From the sequence record OR769032.1: a DNA stretch of 64,000 nucleotides. One strand, 5' to 3'. The notes beneath the pieces were generated by a model. The model was given only the letters and a program-made list of their open reading frames with translations. It was not told the DNA's origin and searched no databases. The position numbers were made by a program, and so were the translations under genes. This stretch comes from Escherichia phage JoYop. Shown here in pieces: positions 13,371-17,610 of this stretch (positions within the stretch are counted from its first letter, which is position 1; each line of letters begins with the position of its first letter).

Positions 13371-13649
13371 TCAAAATGTAATTTCTAACCAATCACCATC
13401 ACGCTGATCACTATTGACTTTAAAGCTAAATCCTTCTTTTCTCAGCCAATTACCAATTTCTTCAGTAATCAATTTATCGCGAGCAGTACAATAATAACTA
13501 AAATATGTTTTACCTTGTTCAGCTGCTTTATTAGCAAGTTCTGAAAAATCTTTAATAAAACATTCTAGTTTAAACTGTTTACTTTTAAGTGCTTTTTCTC
13601 GCAATTGATTAGCAAAAGATTCATTTTCATAAAGATCATACTGTTCCAT
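13371..13649 (-). CDS. Hypothetical protein (92 aa)
   Basis: ORF with ATG start in the rnlB-hoc interval. Confidence 0.55.
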   Translation of the reverse strand: MEQYDLYENESFANQLREKALKSKQFKLECFIKDFSELANKAAEQGKTYFSYYCTARDKLITEEIGNWLRKEGFSFKVNSDQRDGDWLEITF

Positions 13650-13851
13650 TTTTCACCTTTTTATTAATATGTCTTTTTCTATAGACAACTTTTTCTCGAG
13701 TTTCAAATTTATTCTTAGCAGTCATAGCTCGAGCCCATAATACAGCCACTTCTTTCGCCTGTAAGTTCAATTCACGGGCAATTTCAATGAATGACTTTCC
13801 AGACTCATGAAGAGTAAACACCACAACCTCAGTTCTCATAATCAATCTCAT
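13636..13851 (-). CDS. Hypothetical small basic protein (71 aa)
   Basis: ORF with ATG start, overlaps downstream ORF by 14 nt. Confidence 0.5.
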   Translation of the reverse strand: MRLIMRTEVVVFTLHESGKSFIEIARELNLQAKEVAVLWARAMTAKNKFETREKVVYRKRHINKKVKNGTV

Positions 13852-13920
13852 GTTATCGAGTTGGTGCCATTATATACATCGTTTTCTGATTGTGTTTTGT
13901 GTGCTTTCAAAATGAAGAAA

Positions 13921-13934
13921 GGGGCCGAAGCCCC
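13921..13934 (-). terminator. Hairpin ggggccgaagcccc downstream of hoc
   Basis: 5-bp GC stem 6 nt past the hoc stop. Confidence 0.45.
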
Positions 13935-13939
13935 TACGA

Positions 13940-15358
13940 TTATGGATAGGTATAGATGATACCAGTTTCTAAAGCAGTTTTATGAATGATGTATCCATTA
14001 CGCGATTCTTGAACATCAACTTCTGGATAATCTTTCATCATCTTCTGGAGAGTGTAACGATGCAGGTAGTATTTACTATCTGGGTCTTCAGTTTTCCAAT
14101 CTTTACCTTCTTCGGTCATTTTTTGGATTTCATCCATAACCCACCAACCGCACCAGATGTAAGCTGAAGTACGATGTGGAAGAGGATGAACATAAGGTAG
14201 TTCACCTTCTGGTTCCGGAGCAACTTTATCAGTTACCTGAACTTGACCTTCTGCTGTAACAGTTTTGCTATCATAATCAGTGGCGGTAACAGTTGCAGTA
14301 ACTTCAATAGTTTGACTTCCAATAGATGAGGTGTCAACTGTATACACATTAGTCGATTCTTCTACAGGAGAAGAATCTTTCTTCCATGAATAAGTAATTT
14401 GCGCTTCTTCTGGAGCATCAGTCACATTAGCAGTAAATGTAGCCGAAGCATCTTGTTGAACGTTAATAGAAGGAGGAGTCAATGTAACCTGTGGATTCAT
14501 TGTCTTCTTATTAACTGTTAATGACACTTCATTAGAAGTAACTTCCTTTTCATTGTAATTTTCAGCAGTTACTTGGGCTACGCATTTAATTCTTTTTACT
14601 CCACTTGTAGTTGGAGTATAGCTAAATGTAGAGTTAGTTTCTCCACCAACCTGTGAATCATCTACATACCACTGATACGTAGCAGATGCTCCATCAGGTT
14701 GAGAAGCTAAGGCAGCAGTAAATTGAACTGGGGTTCCAATTACTCCAGCTGAAGGACTAGCAGGAGTTACTGCCAAAGTAGTTGTCTGTGTCTTTTTATT
14801 AACAGTCAGTGACACTTCATTAGAAGTAACTTCTTTTGCATCATAATCTGTCGCGGTTACTTGAGCTACACACTTAATTGTTTTAACTCCGCTTGTGTCA
14901 GGAGTGTAATTGAATGTAGCGCTAGTCGCTTCGCTCACAGGAGAACCGTCAACGTGCCATTGATACGTAGCAGATGCGCCTGATGGCTGCGAAGCCAAAG
15001 CAGCAGTAAATTCAACAGCTGTTCCAATCACTCCAGCCGCAGGACTAGCAGGAGTTACGGCTAAGGTAGTCGTCTGAGTTTTGTTTTTGACTGTGATAGT
15101 TGTTGTTGCTTCAGCCGTTTCCGGGCCTCCTTCAGAAAGTGTATTTGTTGCAACAACTTTAATTGTTTTTGTTCCAGCAGGTCCTTTTAACACATAATCA
15201 AAAGTTTCTGCCGATCCTACTTGAGGAGCATCGTCTACACTCCAAGCATAGGTAATAGTTCCACCTCCAGTTTCACCACTGGGTGTAGCAGTAAACTGCT
15301 TGGTTTCATCAATAACCCCTGTCGGTGTTTTAGGAGTTATATCAACTGTAAAAGCCAT
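13940..15358 (-). CDS. hoc: Hoc outer capsid decoration protein, 472 aa with tandemly duplicated Ig-like domain
   Basis: N-terminus MAFTVDITPKTPTG and C-terminal capsid-binding region resemble T4 Hoc; two consecutive 96-aa units each starting KKTQTTTLAVTPASP and ending EVTSNEVSLTVN. Confidence 0.85.
   Translation of the reverse strand: MAFTVDITPKTPTGVIDETKQFTATPSGETGGGTITYAWSVDDAPQVGSAETFDYVLKGPAGTKTIKVVATNTLSEGGPETAEATTTITVKNKTQTTTLAVTPASPAAGVIGTAVEFTAALASQPSGASATYQWHVDGSPVSEATSATFNYTPDTSGVKTIKCVAQVTATDYDAKEVTSNEVSLTVNKKTQTTTLAVTPASPSAGVIGTPVQFTAALASQPDGASATYQWYVDDSQVGGETNSTFSYTPTTSGVKRIKCVAQVTAENYNEKEVTSNEVSLTVNKKTMNPQVTLTPPSINVQQDASATFTANVTDAPEEAQITYSWKKDSSPVEESTNVYTVDTSSIGSQTIEVTATVTATDYDSKTVTAEGQVQVTDKVAPEPEGELPYVHPLPHRTSAYIWCGWWVMDEIQKMTEEGKDWKTEDPDSKYYLHRYTLQKMMKDYPEVDVQESRNGYIIHKTALETGIIYTYP
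14510..15085 (-). repeat. In-frame tandem repeat of period 288 bp (2 units) inside hoc
   Basis: tgacacttcattagaagtaacttc recurs at 14522 and 14810; units are diverged at nucleotide level; boundaries approximate. Confidence 0.75.
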
Positions 15359-15367
15359 AAGTTATCC

Positions 15368-16048
15368 TTATTTTAATGTTACGAAAGAAGAATTGCGTGT
15401 TTCACGAATTAGAACTGATCCGTCGCGGTTAATGTAGTAAATTAAGCTAAATAAAGTTTGGTGTGCCGACGCATGTTCAAAACTAGTTGGATGAGATTTC
15501 CAATCAGGAGTTTCAGCAATCCATTGATAAATCCACCAAGGAACAGTACAGAATCCTGGATTTTTTCCAATCAGCTGAAGATTCGGACTAAAGTTTTCTG
15601 GAAGAGTAAATACAGACGGCTTTTCAGATTCAATAATCTCAGCTACAGCTTGTTCGAACTTTTCTTCAACAAAAGGAGTGTCTTCAATCAAAACATCAGT
15701 ATTTTCAGGAATTTTATCCGTTTCTACTACTTCAATTTTAATGTCAGATTTAACCGGAGAATCAATCAGAAGTGCTGCTTCTGGATTGACTTCTTCATCG
15801 TCATATTTTAATCCCTCTGCAGCATCAGCAGCATCAATTAAGTCTTTAATAGATAACCCATCAGTCTCTGGCATAGGTTCACTAGCGAGCTTCTGGAGGG
15901 CTTCTTCAATATCAGTAACGATATTATCAAAAGATTTATTCTTTTTGACCTTTATACCAAACTGTTCAGCATATTCAGCTAATTTAGCTTTAGCTTCTTT
16001 ATTATCATCAAGAGCCTTCAGCTCTGCAATATAATCTTTATCTATCAT
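15368..16048 (-). CDS. inh: Inhibitor of prohead protease, Inh (226 aa)
   Basis: 226 aa, position immediately upstream of hoc as in T4. Confidence 0.75.
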   Translation of the reverse strand: MIDKDYIAELKALDDNKEAKAKLAEYAEQFGIKVKKNKSFDNIVTDIEEALQKLASEPMPETDGLSIKDLIDAADAAEGLKYDDEEVNPEAALLIDSPVKSDIKIEVVETDKIPENTDVLIEDTPFVEEKFEQAVAEIIESEKPSVFTLPENFSPNLQLIGKNPGFCTVPWWIYQWIAETPDWKSHPTSFEHASAHQTLFSLIYYINRDGSVLIRETRNSSFVTLK

Positions 16049-16061
16049 AATATTTCCTCAG

Positions 16062-16069
16062 TATAAATA
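16062..16069 (+). promoter_or_regulatory. Late promoter box TATAAATA for uvsW
   Basis: Exact TATAAATA 30 bp upstream of uvsW ATG; uvsW is a late gene in T4. Confidence 0.6.
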
Positions 16070-16098
16070 TAGATATATTTATTACATGGTATTTAGAC

Positions 16099-17610
16099 AT
16101 GACTGACATTAAAGTACATTTTTATGATTTTAGTCACGTGAGAATTGATTGTGAAGAAAGTACATTTCATGAACTCCGTGATTTCTTTAGCTTTGAAGCT
16201 GACGGGTATCGTTTTAATCCGAAGTACAAATATGGCCACTGGGATGGACGAATCCGTCTTTTAGATTATAATCGACTTCTTCCATTTGGATTAGTCGGGC
16301 AAATTAAAAAGTTCTGCGATAACTTTGGCTATAAAGCCTGGATTGACCCACAAATTAACGAAAAAGAAGAATTATCAAGAAAAGATTTTGATGAATGGCT
16401 TTCTAAATTAGAAATCTATTCAGGAAATAAAAGAATTGAACCGCATTGGTATCAAAAAGATGCAGTATTCGAAGGATTAGTTAATCGTCGTAGAATTCTT
16501 AATCTTCCAACATCCGCAGGTAAATCTTTAATTCAGGCTTTGCTTGCTCGGTATTATTTGGAAAATTACGAAGGTAAAATTCTTATTATTGTTCCAACAA
16601 CTGCCTTAACAACTCAGATGGCTGATGACTTTGTTGACTATCGTTTATTCAGTCATGCAATGATAAAGAAAATCGGTGGTGGAGCATCAAAAGATGATAA
16701 ATATAAAAATGATGCACCAGTCGTTGTTGGTACATGGCAAACTGTAGTAAAACAACCGAAAGAATGGTTCTCACAATTTGGTATGATGATGAATGATGAA
16801 TGTCATCTTGCTACAGGAAAAAGTATTTCATCTATCATATCTGGTTTAAATAACTGCATGTTTAAATTTGGTCTATCAGGTTCATTACGTGATGGCAAAG
16901 CCAATATCATGCAGTATGTTGGAATGTTTGGTGAAATATTTAAGCCAGTAACGACTTCTAAATTAATGGAAGATGGACAAGTAACTGAGCTAAAAATTAA
17001 TAGTATTTTTCTTCGTTATCCTGATGAGTTCACTACTAAATTAAAGGGAAAAACTTATCAAGAAGAAATAAAAATTATTACTGGGCTCAGTAAAAGAAAT
17101 AAATGGATCGCTAAATTAGCTATTAAGCTTGCACAAAAAGATGAAAACGCTTTTGTCATGTTTAAACATGTATCGCATGGTAAAGCTATTTTCGATTTAA
17201 TTAAAAATGAATACGATAAAGTTTATTACGTATCAGGGGAAGTTGATACTGAAACACGCAATATAATGAAAACCTTAGCTGAAAATGGTAAAGGAATAAT
17301 TATAGTAGCTAGTTATGGTGTATTTTCTACTGGCATTTCAGTTAAAAATCTTCATCACGTTGTTTTAGCACACGGTGTTAAATCTAAAATTATCGTATTG
17401 CAAACAATAGGTCGCGTATTACGTAAGCATGGTTCTAAAACAATCGCAACAGTCTGGGACCTCATAGATGATTGTGGTGTTAAGCCAAAATCTGCTAATA
17501 CTAAAAAGAAATATGTTCATTTGAACTATCTTTTAAAACACGGTATTGATCGCATTCAGCGTTATGCAGATGAAAAATTTAATTACGTAATGAAAACAGT
17601 TAATTTATAA
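16099..17610 (+). CDS. uvsW: UvsW SF2 helicase (503 aa)
   Basis: Walker A LPTSAGKS, DExH box NDECHL, helicase C-terminal motifs; 503 aa. Confidence 0.88.
   Translation: MTDIKVHFYDFSHVRIDCEESTFHELRDFFSFEADGYRFNPKYKYGHWDGRIRLLDYNRLLPFGLVGQIKKFCDNFGYKAWIDPQINEKEELSRKDFDEWLSKLEIYSGNKRIEPHWYQKDAVFEGLVNRRRILNLPTSAGKSLIQALLARYYLENYEGKILIIVPTTALTTQMADDFVDYRLFSHAMIKKIGGGASKDDKYKNDAPVVVGTWQTVVKQPKEWFSQFGMMMNDECHLATGKSISSIISGLNNCMFKFGLSGSLRDGKANIMQYVGMFGEIFKPVTTSKLMEDGQVTELKINSIFLRYPDEFTTKLKGKTYQEEIKIITGLSKRNKWIAKLAIKLAQKDENAFVMFKHVSHGKAIFDLIKNEYDKVYYVSGEVDTETRNIMKTLAENGKGIIIVASYGVFSTGISVKNLHHVVLAHGVKSKIIVLQTIGRVLRKHGSKTIATVWDLIDDCGVKPKSANTKKKYVHLNYLLKHGIDRIQRYADEKFNYVMKTVNL

Follow-up and report, generated by a model that had tools for sequence, protein, structure and literature searches.

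Two long-diverged copies of Ig-like domain 2 in the Hoc protein of Escherichia phage JoYop, a member of a widespread 472-residue class

What makes the Hoc protein of Escherichia phage JoYop longer than that of T4, and is the difference peculiar to this phage? In the window, the whole stretch of 64,000 nucleotides from the sequence record OR769032.1 that was analysed here, the hoc gene lies on the minus strand (13940..15358) and encodes 472 amino acid residues followed by a stop codon (predicted mass 50.5 kDa, pI 4.57). The T4 hoc gene (NC_000866) is annotated as 1131 nucleotides encoding 376 residues, and the length difference given in the initial annotation is thus correct. A family search assigned the JoYop protein to PHROG 1149 'Hoc-like head decoration' (E 3.9e-138), and a sequence search of the PDB matched it to T4 Hoc chains (5vf3_Z, E 2e-225). 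Three further Hoc-like PHROG families (21694, 14282, and 11091) match residues 389-472. NCBIfam has no Hoc model and gave only a sub-threshold match to ZirU. The gene order rnlB-24.2-24.3-hoc-inh-uvsW is the same as in the T4 and MLF4 annotations, and JoYop is a Tequatrovirus (T4-like) phage. The neighbouring gene 24.3 homologue (13636-13851, minus strand) encodes 71 residues (216 nucleotides) in JoYop and MLF4 versus 56 residues (171 nucleotides) in the T4 annotation.

Putative expression signals flank the gene. An AAGGA motif resembling a Shine-Dalgarno sequence (15365..15369, minus strand), recognised from the nucleotide sequence, lies 6 nucleotides upstream of the hoc ATG and overlaps with the stop codon of inh. 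A terminator-like G+C-rich hairpin followed by a T-run (13920..13935, minus strand) is found 5 nucleotides after the stop codon of hoc, and a terminator is annotated at the equivalent position in the ATK48 record. The T4 late promoter motif TATAAATA has no exact match on the minus strand near inh and hoc. Since the nearby exact match (16062-16069) is on the plus strand and faces uvsW, no promoter is claimed for hoc.

It was found that a tandem repeat is nested inside the hoc ORF. At 14501-15076, Tandem Repeats Finder detected a period of 288 bp that is present 2.0 times (79% matches, score 719), and a second repeat search recovered the same 288-bp pair at 78%. In the codon register, repeat unit 1 (14795..15082, minus strand; residues 93-188) corresponds to an Ig-like domain 2a, which is left unmatched when T4 Hoc is aligned, and repeat unit 2 (14507..14794, minus strand; residues 189-284) corresponds to an Ig-like domain 2b, whose lineage is closest to the single domain 2 of T4. 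The two units are identical at 222 of 288 nucleotides (77%) and at 77 of 96 amino acid residues (80%), and the differences between them are concentrated in the central part of the domain. An in-frame 288-nucleotide repeat inside hoc at 77-79% identity is far beyond chance. In the PDB sequence alignment, T4 Hoc covers residues 1-113 and 189-472 of JoYop Hoc. Thus, the 96-residue length difference is exactly one unit. The repeat finder and the T4 alignment agree in this respect with the initial annotation, which described the extra 96 residues as an in-frame tandem repeat with a period of 288 bp. The repeat that it placed at 14510-15085 is real, but its register is shifted by 3 nucleotides relative to the codon-register units (14507-15082). 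Likewise, the shared segments that it listed, ASATYQW, VKxIKCVAQVTA, and EVTSNEVSLTVN, are present in both units, but the KK that it read before unit 1 is not, the residue there being N (…VKNKTQTTT…).

Weak short direct repeats at 15150-15169 and 14256-14290 tie domains 1 and 3 to the repeat unit, with spacings of 285 and 570 nucleotides. These matches resemble relics of earlier duplications that may have built the whole Ig string, although they could also be due to chance, because they are two-copy families of such short length.

Does the additional unit fold as a domain of its own? An AlphaFold2 model of JoYop Hoc was built on a 60-sequence alignment of Hoc proteins. The model has four separate all-beta domains, roughly at residues 1-91, 93-187, 189-283, and 285-376, with a pLDDT of about 90 over residues 1-380. 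Ig-like domain 1 (15083..15358, minus strand; residues 1-92) consists of predicted strands with a pLDDT of about 86-93 and carries E29 and G33. Both repeat units are matched by Pfam PKD and Ig_2 models, and the extra unit is modelled as a beta-sandwich, so that its description as Ig-like holds. The following domain (14219..14506, minus strand; residues 285-380) is domain 3 in the T4 numbering, aligning to T4 residues 189-284, and is the fourth Ig-like domain here. It has a pLDDT of about 87-91, and its residues 289-373 are matched by the Pfam Ig_3 and I-set models. Fold searches with the model recovered Ig-like and PKD structures, RB49 Hoc among them. The C-terminal domain (13943..14218, minus strand; residues 381-472) aligns to T4 Hoc 285-376 with few substitutions, and its columns are mostly invariant in the 60-sequence alignment. 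Thus, structure prediction bears out the four Ig-like domains that had been proposed, while the C-terminal domain, which had been expected to complete the picture, is poorly modelled, with a pLDDT of about 34-61. That this domain should be capsid-binding is judged from its near identity to the T4 domain and not from the model. No evidence contradicting the architecture of four Ig-like domains plus a C-terminal domain was met.

Is a Hoc of this kind uncommon? In a megablast search, JoYop hoc matched 662 phage records, many of them over the full length at 92-95% identity. Among the best 120 protein clusters, 78 have a length of 376 residues, 29 a length of 472 residues, and 7 a length of 568 residues; a few further clusters are within a few residues of these three lengths. 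With unit 1 alone as the blastn query, 890 places were found in 616 phage records. As counted by such places in an evenly spread sample of 60 rows, which is not a full census, 37 of 60 records (62%) have one place, 19 (32%) have two, and 4 (7%) have three, and these proportions reproduce the 274 excess unit-1 places. In addition, the class was first annotated in phage RB30, in 2002; the feature table of its hoc gene (GenBank AY101183) credits an intragenic repeat with an extra immunoglobulin-like domain and also sets out where the Ig-like regions are. With this annotation and with more than one unit in about 39% of the sampled records, the idea that the feature is rare or unannotated was ruled out. 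It has also been described that Hoc homologues consist of a conserved capsid-binding domain and a variable string of one to ten Ig domains (PMC10385173). That paper treats the variable Ig number in general terms and has nothing specific on a length of 472 residues, four Ig domains, or a hoc duplication, and PMC10580926 has nothing on the domain number of Hoc. Because of the AY101183 annotation and the published variability in Ig number, including the two-Ig variant of phiPNJ-9, the 472-residue two-unit Hoc is already known; it is a real but ordinary and widespread allele class. The longer Hoc had been presented as if it were special; the feature itself is real, while its special status is not upheld, since the class is common and already annotated. 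The hoc gene of JoYop, as an ordinary member of this class, is in itself of little consequence.

How old is the repeat? Between unit 1 and unit 2 of JoYop, dN is 0.115, dS is 1.20, and dN/dS is 0.10 by the Nei-Gojobori method, the synonymous divergence being saturated. All three values are the same between unit 1 and unit 2 of RB30, 11B_SA_NWU, and ESh26, and both copies of domain 2 are under purifying selection. In contrast, orthologous units compared between phages have a dS of only 0.04-0.23. In the DNA identity matrix, each JoYop unit has its orthologue in the equivalent position of the other genes of the 472-residue class: the nucleotide identity to RB30, 11B_SA_NWU, and PhiZZ30 is 93.8, 97.6, and 96.2% for unit 1 and 93.1, 97.9, and 98.6% for unit 2, whereas unit 1 and unit 2 within any one gene are 75-78% identical. 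The dS between the units and the positional orthology together indicate that the duplication is older than the split between these phages. A tandem repeat of exactly 288 bp that keeps the reading frame is the form expected of recent replication slippage or unequal crossover private to JoYop, or of an assembly artefact. However, the units differ at 66 of 288 nucleotides with a dS of about 1.2, the same arrangement is present in the independently sequenced RB30, PhiZZ30, 11B_SA_NWU, RB27, and many others, and there are 29 protein clusters of 472 residues among the best 120. A recent or artefactual origin thus has practically no probability left and is ruled out by the dS value and by the positional orthologues in many phages. 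The same two observations (orthologues at 93-99% identity) confirm the earlier view of an old duplication rather than a recent slip. Identical in-register runs between the units reach 24 nucleotides at most, and the repeat should therefore resist collapse by homologous recombination. Taken together, it is highly probable that JoYop Hoc has the order Ig1, Ig2a, Ig2b, Ig3, and capsid-binding domain, and that it belongs to the RB30-type 472-residue class, with Ig2a and Ig2b as long-diverged paralogues.

Was a domain gained in the lineage of JoYop, or was one lost in that of T4? I clustered 164 units from 118 Hoc proteins. They fall into a few lineages whose order hardly varies; the first position is almost always taken by one of them, which is followed by the T4-like lineage or by a third lineage. 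Genes with a single unit carry either lineage: the units of teqdroes and ATK48 are 92.7 and 90.6% identical to JoYop unit 1, while those of T4 (91.7%) and MLF4 (86.5%) are closer to JoYop unit 2. ATK48 belongs to another genus, Mosigvirus; the sole domain 2 of its hoc gene (925-2055) has the 90.6% identity to JoYop unit 1 given above and is thus much closer to it than JoYop unit 2 is (77%). Thus, the unit lineages are shared across genera. At 43 sites that tell the two lineages apart, which were derived from just four two-unit genes that are close relatives, the single unit of T4 reads as 6 unit-1-like, 30 unit-2-like, 5 unit-1-like, and 2 unit-2-like sites in succession, and other single-unit and three-unit genes are patchier mosaics. 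The T4 mosaic is compatible with descent from a two-unit gene in which the units crossed over and a short patch was converted, although allele shuffling could match it as well. Because either lineage occurs in single-unit genes and the T4 unit is a mosaic, T4 could be the reduced form. Thus, of the old domain gain that had been proposed, the extra domain and its age stand, while it is not established that anything was gained with respect to T4. The closest genome over JoYop 1-25000 is that of MLF4 (96.1% identity), which has a single-unit hoc. The Ig part of hoc is 72-89% identical between the two phages versus about 96% in the flanks, making 14500-15360 a local hot spot of divergence. The number of units in hoc thus does not follow the backbone of the genome, and hoc alleles are shuffled independently of it.

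Two histories may be weighed against these data. In one, the multi-unit gene is ancestral, the 376-residue T4-type Hoc has been reduced by recombination between units, and JoYop has retained the longer form. The presence of either lineage in single-unit genes (unit-1 type at 91-93% in teqdroes and ATK48, unit-2 type in T4 and MLF4) speaks for it, as do the nearly fixed order in two- and three-unit genes and the T4 unit itself, whose 5′ end is unit-1-like and then turns unit-2-like with a small unit-1-like patch, as expected from a crossover. However, the diagnostic sites come from the four related genes only, and with patchy mosaics elsewhere, the T4 pattern could have arisen with no deletion at all if recombination between alleles is pervasive; I hold this history to be possible, at appreciably less than an even chance. 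In the other, the two units did not diverge in place, and the two-unit gene was formed in a single event of unequal recombination at the conserved unit ends between co-infecting phages with diverged single-unit alleles, and then spread horizontally. Such alleles exist, since both lineages serve as the sole domain 2 in single-unit phages, the Mosigvirus ATK48 included, and both the uncoupling from the backbone (as with the single-unit MLF4 at 96.1%) and the divergence hot spot in the Ig region fit with exchange of this kind. On the other hand, random crossovers between different alleles should place the units in either order, but hardly any variation in order is seen; this objection is weak, since a single founding event followed by spread gives the same result. 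A one-step origin of this kind seems to me rather unlikely.

The place where T4 carries the homing endonuclease gene segE lies close to hoc. In JoYop, inh (15368-16048) and uvsW (16099-17610) are separated by a spacer of 50 bp (16049-16098), which is the segE-less configuration. It is known that in RB30 and RB52 the spacer between inh (hoc.1) and uvsW is cut by SegE, and that the gene homes with co-conversion of the flanks (PMC2330249). Since the hoc repeat is only about 1-1.5 kb from the segE site, homing could replace hoc alleles. A tie between copy number and segE was considered and rejected, as a spot check of six phages gave no simple link; the segE-carrying T4 has one unit, while the segE-less RB30, MLF4, teqdroes, ATK48, and ESh26 have 2, 1, 1, 1, and 3 units, respectively. 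The lack of segE in RB30 is taken from the literature (PMC2330249); the RB30 record itself holds hoc only.

What may the second copy do in the fibre? In cryo-EM structures of T4, Hoc is located at the centre of gp23 hexamers (PMC10385173). Since the C-terminal domain of JoYop Hoc is nearly identical to that of T4, it should bind at the same place, with one Hoc monomer in the middle of every gp23 hexamer, and Hoc would likewise be dispensable for growth. The extra Ig domain would lengthen the T4-type fibre of roughly 180 Å by roughly 40-45 Å and hold domain 1 further from the capsid. It would also supply a second copy of the NEVSLT strand, which is present twice in JoYop Hoc (residues 180-185 and 276-281) and might be relevant to binding. 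In phiPNJ-9, MUC2 binding requires S183, L184, and T185 in this segment of domain 2 (PMC11853027). In phiPNJ-6, whose Hoc is T4-like with 376 residues, E29 and G33 of domain 1 were reported to bind MUC2 fucose, and isolated domain 2 had no MUC2 binding (PMC11150434). Following the phiPNJ-6 result, the second copy may serve as no more than a spacer. The opposite reading is that the extra domain binds ligands itself and brings additional avidity or a new specificity for glycans. The strong purifying selection on both copies (dN/dS 0.10), the clustering of the unit differences in the middle of the domain, and the doubling of the segment on which MUC2 binding by domain 2 of phiPNJ-9 depends are in favour of this. 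The reading is nonetheless doubtful, as phiPNJ-6 domain 2 does not bind MUC2, the binding was mapped to E29 and G33 of domain 1, and binding results for a 472-residue Hoc were not found in the papers retrieved. A longer Hoc may affect fibre reach or mucin binding.

A wider proposal, which I consider improbable at present, is that the copy number of domain 2 (1, 2, or 3) is a selected polymorphism of length and avidity moved by recombination, that the 376-residue Hoc of T4 was reduced from a multi-unit ancestor, and that phages with more units differ in adherence to mucus or glycans. If it is true, adherence would differ either through a domain 1 held further out or through the repeated NEVSLT site. 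Hoc length is relevant to phage-display and vaccine scaffolds and to models of mucus adherence. A functional comparison of one-, two-, and three-unit fibres was not found in the literature, and the natural allele series of 376, 472, and 568 residues with conserved unit lineages is a ready-made set for it.

Among the known Hoc proteins, that of phiPNJ-9 (283 residues; PMC11853027) belongs to the same family and conserves the NEVSLT segment of domain 2, but it has lost domain 3 and has two Ig domains versus four in JoYop. The N-terminal fragment of RB49 Hoc (PDB 3SHS) has three Ig domains and is about 17% identical to JoYop Hoc in the aligned part. A PDB sequence search with JoYop Hoc gave no significant match to RB49 Hoc, which was found by the fold search only. 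T4 Hoc (NP_049793; PDB 5vf3, 8t1x, and 8t9r) is much closer. Its gene lies between inh and 24.3 as in JoYop, and its domain 1, domain-2 unit, domain 3, and C-terminal domain align end to end with those of JoYop Hoc, although it has one domain-2 unit instead of two. Both proteins are acidic (pI 4.74 for T4 and 4.57 for JoYop), with masses of 40.4 and 50.5 kDa, respectively. T4 has segE between inh and uvsW, while JoYop does not.

Longer relatives also exist. The 568-residue Hoc class, found in several Tequatrovirus phages (such as Shigella phage ESh26 and Escherichia phages UGKSEcP1 and UGKSEcP2), has the same 96-residue unit and the same lineage order as JoYop Hoc, but has three tandem units and five Ig-like domains versus the two units of JoYop. 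The ESh26 hoc gene is at 1225-2931 of its record piece, and the third unit of this class is a distinct lineage. A close counterpart of equal length is RB30 Hoc (AY101183; AAM52483.1), which has 472 residues as in JoYop and a gene that is 94.1% identical in nucleotide sequence over its whole length. RB30 hoc has the same intragenic repeat of 2 x 288 nucleotides, and its units are positional orthologues of those of JoYop. The two genes have allelic differences only, with domain 1 being the most diverged part at 89.5% nucleotide identity.
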